Shown here: piece after piece, positions 1 through 10,349 of the stretch | Layout of the letters: each line of letters starts with the position of its first letter | Position numbering within the stretch: position 1 is the stretch's first letter | NCBI GenBank assembly: GCA_015522685.1 | Contig: WALU01000012.1 | Span: 1-11,354 of the forward strand | Reading direction: 5' to 3' | Length of the DNA: 11,354 nt | Origin: Thermoproteota archaeon | GTDB taxonomy: Archaea; Korarchaeota; Korarchaeia; Korarchaeales; Korarchaeaceae | Made by a program: the position numbers and the translations under genes | The notes under the pieces: model-generated | Told to the model about the DNA's origin: nothing | The model's input: the letters and a program-made list of their open reading frames with translations, nothing else | Database searches by the model: none

Positions 1-236
1 AGATAACTAACTGTGATTTCATATATACTAATCATCATGAGGAGATGGTAAAGAGATCGACTCTATTAATCTCTAGGCTAAAGGCCCAGAAAACTGTGAA
101 TCTTGTTATAAGAATGCATCAGGTCTTAGATAGCTTTAAATCCTCTTATCGAAGTTCTGATACTTTCTTGATCAGCGTTATAGTCGAATCCTTGAGGCTA
201 TCTAGCCGGAAAATATGTTTATTTTTCCCTCACTGC

Positions 237-254
237 TGCAGTATCGATGCTGCA
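237..254. promoter_or_regulatory. Near-perfect 18-bp palindrome ending on the probable start codon of the glycosylase gene; candidate operator
   Basis: TGCAGTATCGATGCTGCA has one mismatched pair and ends at the A of ATG 254. An AT-rich TATA-like tract (TTTATTTTT, about 218-226) lies about 30 bp upstream. Confidence 0.4.
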
Positions 255-1057
255 TGCCTGAGAGAAAGGCCTTAACTGTGGAAAGAGTCTTGGAGAATGG
301 AGAGAAGTTCAAAGAAACTTACATTTACATCCCTAGAGAAATTTCCCTGTTCCAGAAGGCTAGAGATGAGAATGATTGGTTGAGCGCTCTCAGATTCTTC
401 TTCAACAGAGTTCTCTTTCAAGGGAGGGCTGATACAATATCCAGCAAGGTGTTTAGAAGGGTCACGGAATCTATCGAAGAGGCTATAAGAGAGACAGGGG
501 AAAACGTCTCCTTAGGGGATCTAAAAGAGGTTCTAAGGCCGAAATTAGAGAGGCGAATAGGAAGAGGGAAGGTAGGAAAGGGAGGGGATATAGAGCTGGT
601 CATGAGCACCTTGAACTTCTTAGAGGAGGAAGTCGAGGACAGGAATATAATCAACTATTCGATTCGCTTGATAAAATTCGGACAGATCGACTGCCTCTAC
701 TATCGCTTATGTGAGGAGATAAAGGGTGTAGGCCCTAAAACTGCATCCCTGTTCCTACGCGACCTCTACTTCATCGCTGAAGAGGAGATCGGGGATTCAT
801 TCCGGAGGTCGAAGGACTTTCTGTTTCTCCTCCCTGTGGATGTCTGGGTCAGGAGGGTCGTGAGCTGCTTAGGCCTGTTTGATTATCCACCTAGCAAGTG
901 GAGCGGTGGGAGTTCTGAGCTGGATAGAGAACTCAGAAAGGTCATGGTGGAAAAATTCATGGAAAAAGCACCTTTGTTTGATGCTGGAGCATGGTACACA
1001 GGATTTCACGAGATGAAGAGAGGATTCTATCCGGAGTGTATTCCCAAGAAGAGCTAA
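254..1057 (+). CDS. HhH-GPD superfamily DNA glycosylase/AP lyase-like protein (endonuclease III/Ogg-like fold, no Fe-S motif), about 267 aa
   Basis: The HhH motif IKGVGPKTASLFL includes the Lys of bifunctional lyases, and the catalytic-Asp motif LPVDVWVRRV is present. There is no C-terminal CX6CX2CX5C. ATG 254 (MPERK) is preferred over ATG 215 because the extra N-terminus overlaps the TATA-like tract and palindrome. Confidence 0.8.
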   Translation: MPERKALTVERVLENGEKFKETYIYIPREISLFQKARDENDWLSALRFFFNRVLFQGRADTISSKVFRRVTESIEEAIRETGENVSLGDLKEVLRPKLERRIGRGKVGKGGDIELVMSTLNFLEEEVEDRNIINYSIRLIKFGQIDCLYYRLCEEIKGVGPKTASLFLRDLYFIAEEEIGDSFRRSKDFLFLLPVDVWVRRVVSCLGLFDYPPSKWSGGSSELDRELRKVMVEKFMEKAPLFDAGAWYTGFHEMKRGFYPECIPKKS

Positions 1058-1636: not shown

Positions 1637-2543
1637 CTAGAGTTCTATAGCTAGCATCTCTATCTCCCTTTTTATCTCTTTTAGAAAGCTCTCAAACTCT
1701 AACGGAGGTTTGATTATGAAGAGACTCCTCTCGAAGGGATCCCCTAAGATTTGGCGAGATATACTGAGTTCTCTTTTATTCTTTTCCAGCGCGTCTCTAT
1801 ACTTCTTGTAGTATAGGGAAAATCTAATCTTATCGATAATGCTGTCCTTATAGTCCGCTACTCTGAAGCCATGCTTATATAGCATAAATAGATCGTAAAA
1901 ATCTCTTAGCTTCTGAGCCCTTCTCGTTAGAATGGCCCTGATTTTCTCACACAGTATTTCTCTCTCATCGTAAGCTTGAACCTCAAATTCTCTGTAGTAT
2001 TTCAGGAACTCGTCAAAATATACCCAATCCTCCTTACTTAACTTTACATTGCTTAGGAGGGTTTTAACCTTAGCTTCCTTTACTCCAAACAATATTTTCT
2101 CAATGAAGTTCACTTGAATCTTCACTAACTCCGTCTTTTTCCAAAGCTTAAAGGTGACCATTCTTCCACCGCTACCATACTCAATAAATCTCTTATTTCT
2201 TAGATCAGCTTCGAATTCCAAGTTCAATTCCTTACCGGTCCTATCTAAAACTCTTCCAAACTTTTTCGATTTCACTGAGTAGGCTTCTCCTTAACTCCTT
2301 CTTTCCCTTTCCCTGCCATACAGTCTGATCTTTCCATGTGAAATCTAAGTCTACGCTGAACCTATAATATCCAAAATAGCATTTTATTAGGCAACTTCCT
2401 CCCTTGAATAGGTATTTCTCTCCTAGTTCGGAATTTATTCCCCGAAGAATTCGATGTAAAAGTACATCCTTCTCTACTAGGCTAGCATTCTCAACTCCAG
2501 ATTTCTCAGAGATGAAGGAAATGAACTCAGATAATTCCGGCAT
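1637..2543 (-). pseudogene. abiEii: AbiEii-family nucleotidyltransferase toxin (type IV TA), split by a +1 frameshift; about 301 aa if repaired
   Basis: The N-terminal half (2241-2543) has FKGGSCLIKCYFGYYRFSVDLDF, the GG..R.S.DLDF motif. The C-terminal half (1637-2275) has EILCEKIRAILTRR..KLRDFYDL. Removing one A from the A5 run (T5 at 2262-2266) gives a continuous ...SEIEKFGRVLDR... Confidence 0.88.
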
Positions 2544-3162
2544 GTTCTAGCACCTTCTCAACGCTCTTCGGATATGCTTCTACATATCTTAGCACCTTGG
2601 CGCGTTCAAGCTTTTCAGCATACTCCTGGATGAACGAGATTATCCTCTCTTCCGGAACGCTCCTGTATCTGAAGATGTATATGAAGTCTAGAATGGTTTT
2701 CTCAGGATCAGAGAAGACAATCTCATCCTTCTTTATTGTTCCGAATAGCAGCTCCCTTTTCAGTTTCATGAACTTCACTGGTTCCCCGTTTATCTTTATC
2801 TCCTTCGCCCTGAATATCCTGTCGTTCAGTACGAATATCGTTGGATGGAATTCGTGAGTCAAGCCGTTTAGTCTTAATGCGGTATACAGTCCGAAGTACC
2901 AGCTGAGCTTGAGCTTGTTCATCCCCAAGGCTATAAGCTTCAAGGTATCCACGGACCTTCTGAATTCAAATTCTTCAACTGTCTTGACGTAGTAGAGCCC
3001 ACGGAGTATCCTTATGAGGTATCCATAATGGATTAGAAAGTTAATAGTATTGGTGGGATCTGATTTGAACTTCCTGATGATGTCCTTCAGGGAATCCCTG
3101 TCTATTACCCGCCCGCCATAGCTGGATAACACGTACCTGCTTAACCTTCTCACGATAGTCAT
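2527..3162 (-). CDS. abiEi: AbiEi-family antitoxin / transcriptional regulator (type IV TA), 211 aa
   Basis: It has an N-terminal wHTH with GYLIRILRGLYYV, followed by YFGLYTALRLNGLT and SDPEKTILDF motifs. It overlaps the abiEii start by 17 bp. Confidence 0.88.
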   Translation of the reverse strand: MTIVRRLSRYVLSSYGGRVIDRDSLKDIIRKFKSDPTNTINFLIHYGYLIRILRGLYYVKTVEEFEFRRSVDTLKLIALGMNKLKLSWYFGLYTALRLNGLTHEFHPTIFVLNDRIFRAKEIKINGEPVKFMKLKRELLFGTIKKDEIVFSDPEKTILDFIYIFRYRSVPEERIISFIQEYAEKLERAKVLRYVEAYPKSVEKVLEHAGII

Positions 3163-3205
3163 TTATATAACAATATTTAATAAAGTTTATTATAGTGATA
3201 TAAAT
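3161..3205 (-). promoter_or_regulatory. abiE promoter with inverted repeats; candidate AbiEi autorepression site
   Basis: Arms ATTTATATAACAATA (3161-3175) and TATAGTGATATAAAT (3191-3205) are 13/15 complementary. An inner perfect palindrome TAATAAA-G-TTTATTA lies at 3178-3192. The element abuts the start codon. Confidence 0.55.
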
Positions 3206-3487
3206 AACGTCCTATAATGTGAGATGCTATTTACCTTGATTTCAGAGTACATAGGAAGCCGCTTAGGAAGGTAAAGCTCAGACATCCCCTCGTTCTTCAG
3301 CTCGTGAGCTAGCTCAACGTTAGATTGTTTGCATAGGCTAGATAAAATGGTATTGGAGCAACATATTCAGGAAACATGAAGATCCATGAACCAATGAGAT
3401 ATTGGGCTCAAGCGAAGGGTTACAACATCTGAGACTCGAGGTTAGAGGAGTCTACTTTCTTACATGGAGACTTATATATTTTATTGG

Positions 3488-3509
3488 GTCTACAATATTG
3501 GTTGTAGAC
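3488..3509. repeat. Perfect 8-6-8 inverted repeat downstream of a TATA-like tract; orphan operator-like site
   Basis: The repeat is GTCTACAA-TATTGG-TTGTAGAC. An extra GAGTCTAC half-site lies at 3448-3455 and TTATATAT at about 3471-3478. Confidence 0.5.
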
Positions 3510-3784
3510 TCATATGGGATGGAGTTCAAAGGATTTTGGATAATGTGAGACTTACAAGACCATTTACAGGGTTCCTGTGTAGTTTCGCGGAGAGAATGTG
3601 CTCCATCACCTTTTGTTTGCATCTCGTAGCCCTGGCGCCGAAAAATGGCTTGGAAGCTATTACGATTACATTAGTAAGCAACTACCTAAGAGTTACGAGG
3701 AAATTAAGGGAATATGGTTTAAGGTTTCAGGTAAAGGCATTTTTAGATATCTTTATTATACTACTAAAATTGCATAGTTACTCG

Positions 3785-4036
3785 ATGAGCGAGAGGGTGA
3801 GGGTTACCAGGAACTATCAGGTGACCATACCAGCTTCAATAAGGAGGAAAGCGGGCATCAAGGAAGGTGATTACTTGGTGGTCTACTTGAGCGAAGAGGG
3901 TCACATTGTGATGGAGAAGGTGAGAAGGAAAAGGAAGACGCTCAGATCGGGGAGGAAGCTCACCATGGATGAGATAGATGAACTCATTGAGAAGGGTATG
4001 AAGGAGTCTTTTCGACCTGGGGAAGAGGATTCCTAG
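3785..4036 (+). CDS. vapB: AbrB/MazE/SpoVT-family DNA-binding antitoxin (VapB-type), 83 aa
   Basis: MSERVRVTRNYQVTIPASIRRKAGIKEGDYLVV is the AbrB swapped-hairpin signature. A TATA-like TTTATTATA at 3752-3760 lies about 25-33 bp upstream, and a PIN-domain remnant follows. Confidence 0.88.
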   Translation: MSERVRVTRNYQVTIPASIRRKAGIKEGDYLVVYLSEEGHIVMEKVRRKRKTLRSGRKLTMDEIDELIEKGMKESFRPGEEDS

Positions 4037-4043
4037 GGAAAGG

Positions 4044-4236
4044 ATGGCAGTACGGAATTTAGAGACTGTTGGTGATGAGGAGGCCCTCTTAGATACAAAC
4101 ATCCTCATTTAATTTACGATACATATGAGGATTCCCTGTACCACATCGATGCATCGCAGCTTCTAGACGGGCTGAGGGTCTGGGTAATTCCCTTAATAGT
4201 ATTTTACGATTATACATGATTCCTAAAGGGAATGGT
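4044..4236 (+). pseudogene. vapC: VapC (PIN domain) toxin remnant with a 5-bp duplication frameshift, a nonsense codon and 3' truncation
   Basis: ATG 4044 gives MAVRNLETVGDEEALLDTNILI*. Removing one copy of ATTTA (4107-4111/4112-4116) gives LLDTNILIYDTYEDSLYHIDASQLLDGLRVWVIPLIVFYDYT*FLKGM, a typical archaeal PIN N-terminus. TGA 4217-4219 sits where Trp is expected. Confidence 0.82.
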
Positions 4237-4319
4237 GCTGATGCTGTAGTGTACCAGCATTTCGGCCAGCTTTTTCCTCGCCGATAATGCTTGAAATATT
4301 CCTCCACTAGGACATTCAC
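4237..4319 (-). pseudogene. N-terminal remnant of a probable COG2150-like regulator of amino acid metabolism (ACT-domain family)
   Basis: GTG 4319 overlaps the ATPase stop (GTGA). With one base restored near 4282-4283 it reads MNVLVEEYFKHY(P)ARKKLAEMLVHYSIS, resembling the YFxxYPARxKVAxxLxxxGLS N-terminus recalled for this archaeal family. Only about 28 codons remain. Confidence 0.5.
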
Positions 4320-5017
4320 ATTTCCTTCTTTTCCCTTATTATCCTCACCGTCCTTTCAGCGACCTCCTTTTTCGTCCTCTGGAACATCTCACGCGAGAAT
4401 TCGAAGGGGACTTCTCCATTGGGAGCGATTCCCCTAAACTTCTTAGCCTGGATGTAGACATTATCGCTTCTCTTGGAGAACTCTAGAACGTTGTCGGCAT
4501 TCTTCTCTAGCATCGCGTTTACCTCCCCAAACATCTTGGAGTTGACCGCAATGAAGGAGGTCACTCCTTTCGCCTTTAGCTTGGAGATCACTTCTATCAG
4601 GGTCTTTCCAAGCTTCTCCTTGTCATCCGCCTTCACTAGGAGCAGGGTAAAGGACGGTATCACAACTATGGTCTTTTCACCAGCCATTCTCAGGCCCTTC
4701 TCAAGCTGCTCCACCTTTGAGAAGTTGCCGATGCAGTAGTTGCTCTCGATCCGTTTAAGCTCCTCGCAGGACGGTTGGTAATCTAAGAAGGTTATCCTCC
4801 CTTCATCCTCTTCCCGGAGGCCGAAGATGTGCATGTTCCTCAGGATGCCCTGGATGGGGGAGCTGGTCGCGAAGTAAAGAACCTTCCAATCTGAGTGATC
4901 CCTCAGGAACTCAACCACGAACTTTTGGGCGAAGAGGGGCTTTGCTGCCGCCATCGGCCCGGAAAGAGTGGTAAAAGCAGGAAGCTCAAACTCAAAGGCA
5001 TTGAAGCGAAAGCGCAT
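4316..5017 (-). CDS. KaiC/GvpD/RAD55-like RecA-superfamily ATPase with degenerate Walker motifs (subunit B), about 233 aa
   Basis: The P-loop region is LSGPMAAAKPL, the Walker B region IVVIPSFT and the C-terminal region ADNVLEF..IQAKKFRG. It is paralogous to the upstream gene. ATG 5017 follows a GAGGTGG SD; GTG 5026 is the alternative start. Confidence 0.8.
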   Translation of the reverse strand: MRFRFNAFEFELPAFTTLSGPMAAAKPLFAQKFVVEFLRDHSDWKVLYFATSSPIQGILRNMHIFGLREEDEGRITFLDYQPSCEELKRIESNYCIGNFSKVEQLEKGLRMAGEKTIVVIPSFTLLLVKADDKEKLGKTLIEVISKLKAKGVTSFIAVNSKMFGEVNAMLEKNADNVLEFSKRSDNVYIQAKKFRGIAPNGEVPFEFSREMFQRTKKEVAERTVRIIREKKEM

Positions 5018-5027
5018 TGCCACCACC

Positions 5028-5777
5028 TCACAGTCTCTTTATCGCAGGGATAAGGTTTTTCTTGCCCCTTTCTGCCTCTTTCCTTATCTCCTCTAGGAGT
5101 TCCTTTGAAAGGGGAACCTCAACCTCGGTCTTGTTGAAGAGGGCTCCTTTAACACGCTCGATCCTTAGGAACAGCTTCATCGGTTTCTCCATCCTGCTGA
5201 ACATTAGGTTATCACTGGCCCTCTCGAGCTCCTCGATCATGTCCCTGAAGACATCTGTGTTAACCGTGAAAAAGTATGTCCTCGTCTTATCCGCCCTGAG
5301 AAGCCCTTTGATTTTCTCATGGATTGCTTTCCTGTAGGTCGGTGAGAAGAAGAGCAGGTTCAGGGCCGCACCGACGATCATCGTCCCGAACTCGCTTGGG
5401 GTATTGCTGAGGTATATGTTTGCCAGTGAAAGCGCCTTGTCCCACACATCAGGTTTTACTAAATTTGCCTTTACGTGATCATCTTCGACTATCTCAATAT
5501 CCTCTATCGTCGGGTCAAGCTCTATGAAGAATACCCTGCTGTAGTATTCTTTAAGGTCTGTTCCAAGGAGCCTCATGGTGTCCTTGAGGTATTCAAGTGT
5601 CGTACTCGTGAGGACGGAGGTGACTCTGCCACCCTTCCTGAGCCACTCTGAAGTGAATATATAACCTATTAGAGGTTTTCCCGAACCGCCTGGCCCGCTC
5701 ACTAGCGTTGAGGTGTTTGCGGGGAACCCCTCCGGGAGTACCTCTCTAAGCCATTCTGCCTCGAGCCTCATTATCAT
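5028..5777 (-). CDS. KaiC/GvpD/RAD55-like RecA-superfamily ATPase (subunit A), 249 aa
   Basis: LREVLPEGFPANTSTLVSGPGGSGKPL is a KaiC-type N-terminus and P-loop, and SDNLMFSR..FLRIERVKG is a KaiC-type C-terminus. A GAGGTGA SD lies upstream. Confidence 0.85.
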   Translation of the reverse strand: MIMRLEAEWLREVLPEGFPANTSTLVSGPGGSGKPLIGYIFTSEWLRKGGRVTSVLTSTTLEYLKDTMRLLGTDLKEYYSRVFFIELDPTIEDIEIVEDDHVKANLVKPDVWDKALSLANIYLSNTPSEFGTMIVGAALNLLFFSPTYRKAIHEKIKGLLRADKTRTYFFTVNTDVFRDMIEELERASDNLMFSRMEKPMKLFLRIERVKGALFNKTEVEVPLSKELLEEIRKEAERGKKNLIPAIKRL

Positions 5778-5944
5778 AATCTCACCTCATTAAGTTAGTA
5801 TAATCTAATTACATTCGTGAGTTGTTTTATCAACTTAAACTTTACGGATCGATCTCAGATAAAAAATCGAGAAATGAGTAGAGATTATTAAGAGAAAACT
5901 AGGATAACCTAACTCTATACTAGGGTAAGAGGAGCTTCTCATCG

Positions 5945-6156
5945 AGGGCATCTGCACGCTTCCTACTGCACGCGATATTACTCATTCTCAGAGAACTTTT
6001 AAGGCCTGATGTATTGCTGTGGGACGACTTAGGATTCTGATGCTCAGGCTCAGTGAGGGTAAACTGATCTCCAAGCCCCTGAGTGGTGACGAAGCAGCAA
6101 GTCTCATTGAGAGCGGGCTCGATATAAGATTGGCGGGGGCCCTTATAGCGAGCTAA
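5945..6156 (+). pseudogene. Fragment of an ABC/AAA (AAA_15/AAA_21-like) ATPase with an internal deletion
   Basis: RELLRPDVLLWDD (Walker B-like, ending at 6028) is joined out of frame at about 6030/6031 to RILMLRLSEGKLISKPLSGDEAASLIESGLDIRLAGALIAS*, which resembles the GxDxR C-terminus of archaeal ATPases. No start codon or Walker A motif is present. Confidence 0.5.
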
Positions 6157-6552
6157 GACATTAAGCAACTGGATCCTCAAATGCAGAAATCTAGCAGTCA
6201 TATCACGCGCGGTTAAGGGAATCACTATCCAAGATAGAAGGCAGGAGAGGTCAGCGCTCAAGATGGTTATAAGAGTTGAATATTCATTAAAAGAAGAGCT
6301 TTTGGCTCCTCGTTAGTGAGAATAATGAATGCATCCCACACTCATATCAGGCTCCAGATGCCTGCTGAGATACGATAATTCACCTCACCACTCTATATAC
6401 ACACTCATCCTCATCATAAGCATCTAGGTGATCGAGTGATGCCTTTAGATAATCCTTCCATAGAATCATTCCTCAGGGAAGCCTCAAAGATTATTTCCAA
6501 GGATTAAGGGTTCGTTCTTGTGCATTAGAATGGCATTTTCATGAATTTAAGT

Positions 6553-6797
6553 TCACCGCGTTGGCAAATACTTCTCCTTCCTTGAAGACTTGAACGCCGT
6601 TATCACGAGGGCGTAGTTACGTTCTAATCTGTAAACAACCACAAGAACCTTATCTCCTATATCCCTAACAGATTTAATTACTTCTCCTCTGATCGAGTTA
6701 TCAGGAGATTTTATACAAGCCTCTACTTCCTCCTTTCCTTGCTTATTCCCCTTTGAAACATTCTCTCCAGAGCGTGAAGTGTGTACTTTACCTTCAT
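6553..6797 (-). pseudogene. DUF4258-family (RelE/BrnT-like) putative toxin, frameshifted by a 5-bp duplication; 79 aa if repaired
   Basis: ATG 6797 gives MKVKYTLHALERMFQRGISKERRK*. Removing one AAGGA copy (TCCTT x2 at 6731-6740) gives ...HALERMFQRGISKEEVEACIKSPD...VLVVVYRLERNYALVITAF, the DUF4258 pattern, in a 240-nt frame. Confidence 0.85.
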
Positions 6798-6802
6798 ACT
6801 CT

Positions 6803-7024
6803 TCAAATTCTTGCCACACTCTCCACTCCTTCTCTAACCAGCTTATCGAGATCTACGCCCGACTTCGAGAAGTTAAGGATCTCCAACCCTATTATCTTAC
6901 CTCTCTCATTAAGATCAGCTATAATTCTCTCATTTACCTCTACGGAATCTGAGACCTTACCCTCTTTCACCCGTATGTAGAGGGCGTCAGCTACTTTATC
7001 ATAAGACACTCTTAGCTCTTCCAT
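6803..7024 (-). CDS. DUF2283-family protein, putative antitoxin partner of DUF4258, 73 aa
   Basis: The signature VSYDKVADALYIRV...IIADLNERGKIIGLEIL is present. Only 5 bp separate it from the DUF4258 start. Confidence 0.9.
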   Translation of the reverse strand: MEELRVSYDKVADALYIRVKEGKVSDSVEVNERIIADLNERGKIIGLEILNFSKSGVDLDKLVREGVESVARI

Positions 7025-7085
7025 TAATGTTATCCTCGCTGCATTAGGTAATAAAGGCTTCCTACATGTGGAGAAGTTCTGTAAG

Positions 7086-7119
7086 ATCTCACCATGTTGG
7101 AATCAGCAATGGTGGAGAT
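7086..7119. repeat. Imperfect long hairpin / inverted repeat upstream of the DUF2283 gene
   Basis: ATCTCACCAT-GTTG-GAAT-CAGC-A-ATGGT-G-GAGAT forms about 14 bp of stem with two single-base bulges and one G-U pair. Confidence 0.3.
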
Positions 7120-7652
7120 ATATCACATTGGGAACGGTCTTCAGTGCTCTGCTGGCAAGTGCTAAGGATAGTGGATTAGATTAGGTATACGAACCTAAGG
7201 TTAGTTAGTTGCAACCTTGAAGATAATCCGCAGAGATTCATTTATACACTTCAAATCACTTTATGATAACTTAGCAAACCATCCTTATGCATCCTTCACC
7301 TCGCTAAATTCCTAAAGCCTCCATGGTCATGCTCCTCACATCCTCTGGATCCAGCATTAGAATATAGAGGATCTTCTCTTATCGATCTTTATCTTATCGT
7401 GGCTCGGTGTAGTCTATACGATTCTTTTCCAGTAAACATCAACTATTTTAGAAAAGGATTTCAGATTATTATGATGAATGTAAATATATGGAGGATCATC
7501 AATAAGGTGTTAAGTAAATCAATCGATGACCTTAGGAGTGTAAGTGATGAGAGAATAATTCAGAATATGCTGAAGATTAATCCATTGAGATCCACTCTAT
7601 TCTCAGATCAAATCAGATTAGAGATCCTAGTGTGTTGCCTAGTTCGCTGGCA

Positions 7653-7677
7653 TGTGAAGGAGGTGGAGGCCTTCACA
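7653..7677. repeat. Perfect 8-bp stem hairpin downstream of the radical SAM gene; possible terminator or stability element
   Basis: TGTGAAGG-N9-CCTTCACA is followed by GTTTT on the + strand and lies about 50 bp past the stop at 7730. Confidence 0.3.
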
Positions 7678-7729
7678 GTTTTCGTAGGCGCGTACTAAGG
7701 CGCTCCTCCTTCCAAGGATATATGCATGC

Positions 7730-9061
7730 CTAAGTCTGAGTTCTTAGGCCCCATTCTCTAAACATATTGACGCTCATATATATACTGCGCTGCATTATAT
7801 GTATCAGATACATAGCTGGACCCCCTTTAACATAGTAACAGCCATCTATACTAGGCTTCTCGCCTAGCATCCTCAAAGCCGCTGCAATAAATGCTGCAAA
7901 CTTCGCGCCACGTTCTCCGTACCTCTCAACAAGTATTGAGGGACATAAGCGTAGTCCAAAGACTTGCGTAGATGTATAATATAGCATATCCTCGCTCGGA
8001 GCAATATGAAGCGCCTTTGTGCCGGAGAATCCTCTTTTCTCGACAAGCTTAGCATACTTCTTGATGCTAAAAGTATTCGCGTATGCGTAGCTACCGAGTC
8101 TACCTATGCCGCTTATCCCTAATGCAAAGAACTTATCATAATCGATTATGTACTCATCTATGAGGTCTGAGCCTCTATTCATACACCACGCTGTTGAAGG
8201 CAAGTACTTATGCCTAATAGCCTCACAAACTATTGTTTCATAAAGTCTCGGCTCAAAGGGGTGCCATGGTCCTTCAGCACGTTGCCTCATAAGTTTTCGC
8301 AGCCCTGGTGCAGGCATCATGGGGTAAAATGTTACTTGGTCAGCCCCCAGCGAGAGAGACTTAGCCGCTTCCTCACGTATTCTCTCGACTGTATCGTTCC
8401 GGGCGCCCCAGAGCATATCGATATTAAGAGTTCTAAACTTTCCTCTAGCTGCCTCAACTGCTCTAAGCGAGTGAGCAACTCGATGATGGAGACGGCCGAG
8501 CTCTATAAGCCTCTTATCATCAAGAGCTTGAACTCCGATACTTAGCCTCGTTATGTTCACCGAGCGAAGAACTGAGACAGCTTCATCATCTATGTCTAAG
8601 GGGCTTGCCTCTGTAGAGATGTCTATTCCACTGCCAAAATAACTCTTAAGAAGATCTATAATCTCAGCTAGCTCATATATATTTATCGAGGGTGTCCCAC
8701 CACCTATGTAGACTACGCGTATCCTTGCGTTTTCAGCATTAGATGCAAGCCATTCAATCTCCTTCTTCAACGCGGACGCATACAATACATCAAGCTTAGG
8801 ATCATAAGGGTATTTCACGAAGCAGCAAAATCTGCAAAGCGGAGTATGGCAGAAAGGCATATGAATATAGAGAATATAATCCCCCTTAGCAATGCCCCGC
8901 ACTACCTTGTAATGCTCATCCGGGTCAGCATCACTCTCTATAAGTTTTCTAAAGAATGCCTCTGTACGAGCAGTTACGATACTACCAATAAGAAGCTTTC
9001 CGAGAGAACGTATAGAACTAGGGACATGCTCATTACATAGCTTGTCGCTACCCATACTCAT
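7730..9061 (-). CDS. Radical SAM protein, HemN/coproporphyrinogen III oxidase-like family (COG0635), 443 aa; actual substrate unknown
   Basis: Motifs seen are LYIHMPFCHTPLCRFCCF (cluster motif), VYIGGGTPS, ISTEASP, RLSIGVQ, LNIDMLWG, ADQVTFYPMM and FFALGISG. The start could instead be ATG 9055. Confidence 0.9.
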   Translation of the reverse strand: MSMGSDKLCNEHVPSSIRSLGKLLIGSIVTARTEAFFRKLIESDADPDEHYKVVRGIAKGDYILYIHMPFCHTPLCRFCCFVKYPYDPKLDVLYASALKKEIEWLASNAENARIRVVYIGGGTPSINIYELAEIIDLLKSYFGSGIDISTEASPLDIDDEAVSVLRSVNITRLSIGVQALDDKRLIELGRLHHRVAHSLRAVEAARGKFRTLNIDMLWGARNDTVERIREEAAKSLSLGADQVTFYPMMPAPGLRKLMRQRAEGPWHPFEPRLYETIVCEAIRHKYLPSTAWCMNRGSDLIDEYIIDYDKFFALGISGIGRLGSYAYANTFSIKKYAKLVEKRGFSGTKALHIAPSEDMLYYTSTQVFGLRLCPSILVERYGERGAKFAAFIAAALRMLGEKPSIDGCYYVKGGPAMYLIHIMQRSIYMSVNMFREWGLRTQT

Positions 9062-9262
9062 TACCAGTCCTTTATTCTCCGAAACATTACATTAAATAAT
9101 CATGGATGAATAGGGTCCTTGGCCCATCTCGCCAAAGGCTTTTGTGAACAAGTAGGCTATATTTAAGGTCTTATTTGCATATGTGCGAATTTCCCTAGAT
9201 GAAACAGATTCTAAGATAGGTACAACTTGTTACATCGCGCGCGATTATCTCTATAATGAACT

Positions 9263-9628
9263 TCAACCCATCTCAGTCAAACGTCTTGTCTTACTCCTAA
9301 TATCCTCCATCTCCTGCCTTGCAGCCCTAAGCAGGGATATTTTAAGTAGAGAATCTCTCTCCACAAGAATCTTGCAGTTAGAGAGAGAACTTACTCTGAA
9401 ACTAGGCGGAGCATAGTCCAAGAGCCTTACATCTACATATATGCCTATCTCCTTGGTCAGTAGATCGCTAAACTCCTCACAGAATTCTACTTCTTCATTC
9501 CTAGTTACCCTAAATCCTGTAAAGACTACAACATCAACATCTCTGAACACCTCTGATTCCAAGAATCCGCCATGAACCGCTGCTAGCAGCACCTCTGGGC
9601 GATTCAGCTCTCTACTCAGAATCTTCAA
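9263..9628 (-). CDS. mntA: MNT minimal nucleotidyltransferase antitoxin (MntA-like, type VII TA); true start probably further upstream
   Basis: LLAAVHGGFLESEVFRDVDVVVF gives the G[SG]..DxD motif and YVDVRLLDYAPPSF the third Asp. The frame stays open upstream to at least 9703 (..KFSFHRLGKKEKDKILKIL) with no ATG, GTG or TTG. Confidence 0.85.
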   Translation of the reverse strand: MKILSRELNRPEVLLAAVHGGFLESEVFRDVDVVVFTGFRVTRNEEVEFCEEFSDLLTKEIGIYVDVRLLDYAPPSFRVSSLSNCKILVERDSLLKISLLRAARQEMEDIRSKTRRLTEMG

Positions 9629-9683
9629 TATCTTATCCTTTTCCTTCTTTCCAAGCCTATGAAAGGAGAATTTCCTATGCTCC

Positions 9684-10099
9684 TCAATTTTCCTCAGGTA
9701 AATTATCCATCGCCTCCCTGATGAACCTCCTCACGGATTCCAAGCCACAGGACTTGGCTTCTCTGTAGAGCCTAGAATCATCGATATCCCAGTACCTGTG
9801 AACCACATGTTCCTTAGAGCTGCAAGCTTACTCATACTATCCGCTGTGTTAGGGGATACGATCCCGCGCAAAGCTAGCTTTCTGAAAACATCTTTATAGC
9901 TCTCAGAAGACTCATTAAACCTCCTCTCTAAGATATAAATCCCTAGATCTGCCGCCGCTTCTACTATCTGAACTATTGAGTATCTAGCAGAAAACCTAGC
10001 CGTTCTATTTCTCAAGAAGGTTTTTTCATCCGTAGAGTGCAACTTCTCAAGTTCATCCAGAGCTTCTTCTATCTCGGAAATCCTTCGACGAAGTTTCAT
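9684..10099 (-). pseudogene. hepT: HEPN (DUF86/HepT-like) RNase toxin with a 1-bp deletion inside the RX4H catalytic motif; about 138 aa if repaired
   Basis: The sequence ARYSIVQIVEAAADLG...ESYKDVFRKL...LRN leads into AAC ATG TG GTT CAC AGG TAC TGG GAT ATC GAT GAT. Adding one base at about 9805/9806 gives RNM(L/V)VHRYWDIDDSRLYREAK...PEEN* with the stop at 9684-9686. Confidence 0.88.
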
Positions 10100-10121
10100 T
10101 CACCAATATCTCTATAATTAG

Positions 10122-10136
10122 CTTATAAATATAAAT
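10122..10136 (-). promoter_or_regulatory. TATA-like promoter of the HEPN-MNT operon
   Basis: TTTATATTTATAAG lies on the minus strand about 23-37 bp upstream of ATG 10099. Confidence 0.45.
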
Positions 10137-10349
10137 TCGTCAAGCTTTATCTCGGGCCATTCGCTACAATCATTAGGATCACCTCGCCGCAGAATTCCTC
10201 CATTAATGCTTTAGACGAAGACTATGTCCTCTTCGCTCGAATGCTTTCACAAGCCTTATAAAGCGCGCAATCTATCACCGGTGTAATGAGCGAGGCACTT
10301 AAATACTCGAAATATGCGTATGAAAGTTTTTATGATTAAGGGAGAAGAA

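Follow-up and report, generated by a model that had tools for sequence, protein, structure and literature searches.

Why should every recognisable toxin gene on a stretch of archaeal DNA be broken when the antitoxin genes beside them are open? The question is raised by a window of 11,354 bases that makes up the entire contig C12 (WALU01000012.1) of the draft genome G000, which belongs to a Korarchaeum-type archaeon and comprises 1.48 Mb in 63 contigs (92% complete, 0.7% contaminated, 41.8% GC). An earlier note, made from the letters of the window, described four unrelated toxin-antitoxin (TA) systems in this state, and offered two explanations: a stepwise disarming that hits the toxins first, or a retained bank of orphan antitoxins. 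The answer favored here, with a probability of roughly 0.8, is that the window is a TA islet of a Korarchaeum-type genome where two-step erosion of the ordinary kind is under way. Five toxins of five unrelated families (AbiEii, VapC, TumE, DUF4258, and HepT) have been inactivated independently of one another. The damage consists of small lesions of the slippage type, namely one additional base in an A run, two tandem duplications of 5 bp, a deletion of one base, and a nonsense codon, and of traces of rearrangement in the form of truncated VapC and TumE genes and a scar of an etfA gene. When checked against intact homologues, the lesions in AbiEii, VapC, DUF4258, and HepT were all found where the earlier note had placed them. 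The four antitoxins AbiEi, AbrB, DUF2283, and MNT are likewise uninterrupted, as it had claimed, and are full length compared to profiles or orthologues.

AbiEii is a GTP-specific nucleotidyltransferase and the toxin of a type IV TA system. In the window it is a pseudogene on the reverse strand (1637..2543), consisting of an N-terminal part (2241-2543) and a C-terminal part (1637-2275) with frames of 100 and 212 amino acids, respectively. Both pieces match PF08843, and together they cover positions 2-91 and 88-289 of the 296 in the PADLOC profile PDLC02321. The lesion is one extra base in the A5 run at 2262-2266. Removing one A restores the join ...LLSEIE|K|FGRV... in an alignment with four full-length relatives, and AbiEii relatives of 299-308 amino acids read ...LLSEIE-x-FGS... 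across it. The closest full-length relative is 64% identical and is labeled Bathyarchaeota by its source. The adjacent gene on the same strand (2527..3162) encodes the AbiEi antitoxin/regulator, which is open and full length with its 211 amino acids and matches positions 2-203 of the 205 in PDLC02273 (E 4e-80); no match to AbiEi was found in Pfam or NCBIfam. The gene pair, its order, and its full-length PADLOC matches are thus those of the type IV system AbiEi-AbiEii, except that AbiEii is frameshifted and no longer one open frame of about 300 amino acids. A homologue of AbiEi was found in one of 20 congeners (G007, 40% identity), where an AbiEii gene with at least two frame changes, judged by eye across three frames, lies beside an open AbiEi. 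Among the 120 best AbiEii relatives about 12 have only 193-257 amino acids compared to about 302; some of these are likely to be cut by contig ends, and some may be split toxins.

The second pair lies on the forward strand. It consists of an AbrB/MazE-fold (VapB-type) antitoxin of 83 amino acids (3785..4036), open and matching PF04014 (E 3e-14) and TIGR01439, and directly downstream of it the remnant of a VapC (PIN) toxin (4046..4234). The remnant is recognized by alignment to congener orthologues and is missed by the PIN profile. It carries a duplication of ATTTA at 4107-4116 and a TGA at 4217-4219 where relatives have a conserved TGG encoding tryptophan, and its similarity to an orthologue of 136 amino acids ends at 4234, so that residues 10-51 remain and the 3′ two-thirds are missing. 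What is left does not amount to a PIN domain that has the conserved acidic residues within a single frame. Intact VapC orthologues of 133-140 amino acids are found in five congeners (G002, G009, G020, G003, and G023). The antitoxin is 71-74% identical to its orthologues over residues 1-76 of 76, and a change of its stop codon from TGA to CGA extends it by seven C-terminal codons. An alignment of the AbrB/VapC junction displays an insertion of about 65 nt that adjoins the lost stop. A complete paralogous AbrB-PIN module is found on contig C2 of the same genome (49 and 43% identity).

Further downstream, on the reverse strand, an open DUF2283 antitoxin of 73 amino acids (6803..7024; PF10049, E 8e-18) is followed by a DUF4258 toxin pseudogene (6553..6797). 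The antitoxin is 78% identical to that of congener G003 over 73 of 73 residues. An open DUF4258 gene is not found after it. AAGGA is duplicated at 6731-6740, giving a surplus of 5 nt in a DNA alignment with the intact G003 gene, and residues 4-23 and 22-81 of the 83-residue G003 orthologue are matched in different frames. The longer piece scores 16.6 bits in Pfam, below the cut-off of 25 bits. A complete paralogous DUF2283-DUF4258 module exists on C52, with 59 and about 50% identity. In G020 the DUF4258 gene is broken by a tandem duplication of 7 bp (locus L006, G020:C6 ~1690-1720).

The fourth pair resembles the type VII system HepT-MntA, in which MntA adenylylates the RNase HepT. The gene pair, its order, and its matches to PF01934, NF047751, and PF18765 all agree with such a system. 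The HepT toxin (9684..10099, reverse strand) is a pseudogene of the HEPN RNase type in which one base is missing at 9806/9807, between the R and the H of the catalytic Rx4H motif (RNxxVH), and an HEPN RNase with an intact motif is thus absent, in contrast to the known systems. Residues 1-98 of an intact G015 HepT of 141 amino acids are matched in one frame and residues 99-141 in the next; correspondingly, positions 1-89 and 90-119 of PF01934 fall in two frames. The MntA-like nucleotidyltransferase antitoxin, MNT (9263..9628, reverse strand, 121 amino acids), is open, and a GG...DVD motif can be read in its sequence. It matches PF18765 exactly at the cut-off (26.9 bits) and scores 17.7 against the MntA equivalog NF047752, for which the cut-off is 60. 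Its orthologue in G015, which pairs with the intact HepT, is 74% identical over residues 1-109 of 122. The HepT-MNT module is exactly flanked by a direct repeat of 18 nt (9246-9263 and 10107-10124; 16 of 18 identical), of which the 12-nt core occurs only four times in the genome. The repeat is not found beside the modules of G015, G002, G009, or G020. It may be a cassette boundary or a product of chance; the latter is considered because repeats of similar size occur elsewhere in the window and because it is absent beside the related modules.

To these four toxins can be added a TumE-family remnant on the forward strand (6338..6498), which the earlier note did not contain. It represents the last ~54 codons of a TumE gene in two frames, with a frameshift at 6391-6394, and its N terminus is gone. 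The remnant matches residues 69-122 of 124-residue frames in G007, G014, and G005 (120 amino acids from the first start codon), and the family was assigned through the G007 protein (PF20126, E 7e-18). In these three genomes the intact TumE genes of about 120 amino acids follow a small TumA-like gene, which matches NF045776 weakly. No TumA remnant was found beside the TumE remnant in comparisons with the own genome and the fetched loci, and a profile search of the own genome for TumE gave no match, so that no toxin matching the TumE profile stands next to a TumA antitoxin here. Judged from these matches, the remnant is a fifth broken toxin of the window, whose antitoxin has already been lost.

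Could the toxins be intact in the cells, and the indels stem from sequencing, from assembly, or from the mixing of strains in a metagenome bin? Some features invite this explanation: the draft genome is split into 63 contigs, the lesions include two single-base indels of which one lies in a homopolymer, and in the protein database the AbiEii piece is present on one contig only. The kinds of lesion speak against it, as they include two tandem duplications of 5 bp, one nonsense substitution, and two truncations. Tandem 5-bp duplications, nonsense codons, and truncations are not typical sequencing errors. The quality of the assembly was assessed by comparing 743 reference open reading frames (ORFs), taken from 800 kb of a congener genome on a single contig of 1,590,757 bases (G012), to the whole genome. 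For 366 of them an assessment was possible: 310 ran intact in a single frame, two were frameshift candidates, 33 contained stops, 12 were partial, and nine lay at contig ends. The frameshift candidates are an HEPN toxin gene and the 3′ end of a tmcA-like gene. Twelve of the best alignments had a stop in their interior, and about four of these were judged by eye to be real; most of the remaining alignments with internal stops involved query ORFs that were over-extended or antisense.

The lesions are also unevenly placed within the window. At least five fall within the 2.0 kb of toxin remnants and none in the 6.5 kb of other open genes, where there are 17 homopolymer runs of five or more bases, including an A7. 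With five small lesions scattered randomly over the 8.5 kb of coding DNA, the probability that all of them would land in the toxin remnants is 0.0007. Toxin breaks of like kind are moreover found independently in the assemblies of other species. The argument of the earlier note against random indel errors thus holds, with two frameshift candidates in 366 conserved genes and the open genes undisturbed; random assembly error is an unlikely source of the lesions, and the wider possibility of an artefact of assembly or consensus is judged quite improbable. The alignment of orthologous loci, which it had also proposed, showed that the toxin orthologues in congeners are intact.

If the lesions are real, the toxins might still have been switched off reversibly, either by slippage-prone lesions that revert at a high rate or by programmed frameshifting that reads through them, so that expression would be of the contingency type. 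In three of the four modules the first lesion is of the slippage type, and the short tandem duplication in the DUF4258 gene of G020 is a third example of its kind, as such duplications account for three toxin knock-outs in all (7 bp in G020, 5 and 5 bp in the window). Slippage duplications may accordingly be a common type of mutation in these archaea. However, the shifts agree neither in sign nor in size (+1, +5, +5, and -1), so that no single recoding event fits them, and the truncated VapC and TumE genes cannot revert. The orthologues in congeners are plain open frames in which the shifts are not conserved. Regulated silencing of this sort is accordingly regarded as very improbable indeed.

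Ordinary two-step erosion would proceed as follows. A cell would survive the loss of a toxin but not that of its antitoxin, and the first hit in each module would therefore have to fall in the toxin. An antitoxin left without its toxin would be a gene without a job and would decay later. The four antitoxins of the window would still be open because too little time has elapsed, and the fifth, the partner of TumE, is already gone. The proportion of nonsynonymous differences (pN) relative to orthologues is 0.12-0.13 in the toxin remnants and 0.10-0.16 in the antitoxins, and the ratio to synonymous differences (pN/pS) is 0.15-0.18 and 0.17-0.22, respectively, at synonymous sites that are saturated (0.61-0.89). 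Since both measures are equal in the two groups, the breaks are recent. The dN/dS comparison put forward in the earlier note as a check on antitoxin retention was thereby computed, and it does not discriminate between the hypotheses, because the synonymous sites are saturated and the toxin remnants are as constrained as the antitoxins. The order of the lesions is equally silent. Three of the four modules carry only the obligatory first lesion, and the two informative later ones both lie in VapC (p = 0.38). Since the first lesion must be in the toxin, the open antitoxins say nothing about retention; their open frames are what recent neutral decay predicts.

Decay of the same kind is seen elsewhere in the genome and in the genus. 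A tally of toxins in G000 outside the window was made by profile search, leaving out one atypical AbiEii match. It gave ten open PIN genes, four open and two broken HepT genes, three open and three broken HEPN genes, three open and two broken AbiEii genes, one open DUF4258 gene, and two open ParE genes. All AbrB and DUF2283 matches of the genome are open, and one MNT, on C36, is broken. For HepT a census was compiled from family-search loci in 21 genomes of the genus, using HepT and MNT profiles built from the open copies, and 74 genes from 17 of the 21 genomes were counted from a table of 75 rows. Two edits were made by hand: the two pieces of L192 were merged, and a 118-residue MNT in L171 with a short profile match was counted as open. 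A weak Pfam match in G017 was not recovered by the own profile. In 45 cases both genes are open, in ten the toxin alone is broken, in six both are broken, and in five the toxin is broken and no MNT was found. The rest comprise two cases where only the antitoxin is broken, two where MNT is cut by a contig end, two where no MNT was found, and two borderline ones. Altogether 21 of the 74 HepT toxins are degraded, ten with an open MNT and 11 with an MNT that is broken or not found; related species share loci, so these are not counts of independent events. A raw comparison of the family tables, in which 12 of 76 HepT rows had an open frame below 100 amino acids as against ten of the best 150 of 253 for Polbeta, was biased and was replaced by this census.

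Some of the loci have an organization of their own. At C36:12658-13443 an open HepT of 137 amino acids, in which RNILVH is present, lies beside an MNT in three frames, which is an antitoxin-first lesion. C53 encodes an open HepT of 151 amino acids and an MNT frame of 70 amino acids from which ~65 residues in the middle are missing, among them the catalytic Asp pair (~8090-8280, 7688-8011). C51:23010-23643 encodes an open MNT of 141 amino acids and a HepT truncated to 78. The modules on C53 and C51 are paralogous, with reciprocal defects, and their HepT proteins are 50% identical over 68 residues. In L185, L187, and L188 (G009:C26, G002:C9, and G020:C55) HepT-like and MNT-like domains are read in one frame of 250-254 amino acids, which makes these apparent toxin-antitoxin fusions by sequence, and in L201 (G005:C79) the HepT part of such a frame is frameshifted.

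The other explanation offered at the outset was that the orphan antitoxins are kept by selection, as anti-addiction protection from incoming elements that carry related toxins, as an extra antidote for resident paralogous toxins, or as regulators of transcription. None of the four antitoxin frames is interrupted or shortened, MNT retains its GG...DVD motif, and the genome contains complete paralogous modules (AbrB-PIN on C2 and DUF2283-DUF4258 on C52). The reciprocal defects on C53 and C51 would need protection in trans. A review discusses such roles as plausible, though for most orphans they have not been demonstrated (PMC7354431). The same open frames are, however, what recent toxin-first decay predicts, and neither the later lesions (p = 0.38) nor pN/pS, with its saturated synonymous sites, separates the two. 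The TumA partner is already lost, AbrB is without its stop codon, and in the genus 11 of 21 broken HepT genes have an MNT that is broken or missing. The genome also lacks an open HepT of the window MNT's own subfamily; the nearest paralogous module, on C31, is 29% (MNT) and 33% (HepT) identical, and its HepT is broken as well. Anti-addiction further requires a matching incoming toxin and its neutralization. A bank of antitoxins kept by selection is thus considered unlikely. Slightly less credence still is given to the specific claim that the surviving antitoxins act in trans and, far from being debris, are maintained to buffer the cell against its own paralogous toxins or against incoming elements, and just as little to its corollary that TA duties are distributed between paralogous modules such as those on C53 and C51. 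Of the two inferences in the earlier note, toxin-first stepwise disarming is therefore supported, by the lesions, the intact orthologues, the mosaic structure described below, and the recurrence in the genus, and the retained antitoxin bank has gained no support.

Erosion has taken place in a region of high turnover. In G002, G009, and G020 the AbrB-VapC pair is directly convergent, tail to tail, on MNT-HepT, while in the window an insert of about 5 kb separates the two pairs, with VapC truncated at the join. This insert contains two KaiC-like ATPase genes, the TumE remnant, the DUF2283/DUF4258 pair, and a HemN/HemW-like radical SAM (rSAM) gene. The KaiC-like genes (4316..5777, reverse strand; PF06745) encode proteins of 236 and 249 amino acids and are open passengers; they are mutually divergent, with 27% identity. 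Of the 41 genomes searched only G000 itself has the pair (0 of the 40 others). The rSAM gene (7730..9061, reverse strand; 443 amino acids, PF04055, NF006385) is another open passenger, present in none of 20 congeners and in two of 20 relatives that are more distant. When metagenomes were scanned with the rSAM protein, no contig of the same species was found (best match at most 69% identity), and the relatives obtained, at 61-69% identity, share no other gene with the window. The window is accordingly a mosaic of accessory genes, a high-turnover TA islet, because of the insert, because of the distribution of the rSAM, KaiC-like, and AbiEi genes, and because the rSAM relatives share no neighbors with it. 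A remnant of 54 nt from the 5′ end of an electron-transfer-flavoprotein (ETF) alpha gene (10132..10185, reverse strand) is 95% identical to C15:12045-12099, where an intact copy of the gene is found, and is a rearrangement scar. The ETF-alpha homologue in G002 matches PF01012 and PF00766. In G002 and G020 the distance between the ETF-alpha gene and the homologous TA cluster is about 1-2 kb.

Several observations weigh against ordinary two-step erosion as the full account. The additional base in the A5 run and the single-base deletion could still be consensus errors, which leaves a small doubt, and the genome is a draft in 63 contigs that is 92% complete. All five toxins of the contig are dead, as against seven of 30 in the rest of the genome (p = 0.002 in a post hoc Fisher test), a concentration that plain decay alone does not explain. 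Both antitoxin-only breaks of the census, on C36 and C53, are found in G000, and the toxin-first order is thus not absolute. Finally, five of seven HepT modules are damaged in G000, compared to 18 of 67 in its congeners.

The remaining part of the window adds little to the picture. An open gene of 280 amino acids (215-1057, forward strand) has no family name, and no match to it was found in Pfam, NCBIfam, PADLOC, or by PDB sequence search; the label glycosylase given to it earlier finds no backing in the Pfam, NCBIfam, and PDB sequence searches. A helix-hairpin-helix-like GVGPKTA motif was read in it by eye, and it has a G007 homologue with 71% DNA identity. A small winged-helix gene is listed beside it, and the start of a CrtI-like oxidoreductase gene is also present in the window. 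RNA-gene and tRNA scans found no RNA genes or tRNAs in the window, and neither an integrase, a tRNA target, nor terminal repeats appeared in the ORF list, the Pfam scans, the tRNA scan, or the output of the repeat finder. The intergenic stretches 3163-3784, 7025-7729, and 9062-9262 gave no remnant matches when compared to the own genome and the fetched congener loci.

Two-step erosion was reportedly described by Mine et al. in 2009 for ccdO157 in Escherichia coli, and orphan antitoxins are said to have been proposed as anti-addiction modules by Saavedra De Bast et al. in 2008. The process has more recently been followed in type II TA systems across the genus Photorhabdus, where the counts are 185 cases with only the toxin lost, 186 with both genes lost, and eight with only the antitoxin lost (Belot et al., 2026; PMC13617665). 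The corresponding numbers of the HepT census, 10, 11, and 2, resemble these in their proportions: it is common for the toxin alone to be a pseudogene beside an open antitoxin and rare for the antitoxin alone to be one, and the loss of both is about as common as that of the toxin alone. The two cases also share the placement of TA modules in small islets of high gene turnover (PMC13617665). The erosion of ccdO157 has a similar shape, and the reviews regard orphan antitoxins mostly as remnants (PMC7167474, PMC7354431). Examples named there are a parE pseudogene in Caulobacter, a frameshifted YacB in Shigella, and the 2253 orphan antitoxins predicted for Klebsiella, which mostly derive from degraded systems, and, like these orphans, the antitoxin genes of the window lie beside toxins that are frameshifted or missing (PMC7354431). 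A comparative survey from 2009 lists TA genes of Korarchaeum and mentions that pseudogenes were hard to detect (PMC2701414). Among the four papers found on Korarchaeum and TA systems, none had a title or abstract opening on TA decay in this group.

The window thus displays toxin lesions next to open antitoxins, intact orthologues, and a variable region, and the pattern is the already described erosion of TA systems and not a new system. It differs from the Photorhabdus and ccdO157 cases in that the host is a Korarchaeum-type archaeon, and from those concerning bacterial type II systems alone in that types II, IV, and VII are involved, with AbiE, HepT-MNT, DUF4258-DUF2283, TumE, and VapBC all recognized from their sequences. 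As a discovery it is of little importance; the observation is real and its explanation ordinary. Its value lies in showing clearly, in an archaeon, a process whose documentation has so far come mainly from bacteria, with modules of type II, IV, and VII side by side, and those who annotate such genomes should expect seemingly solo antitoxins to lie beside unannotated toxin wreckage.

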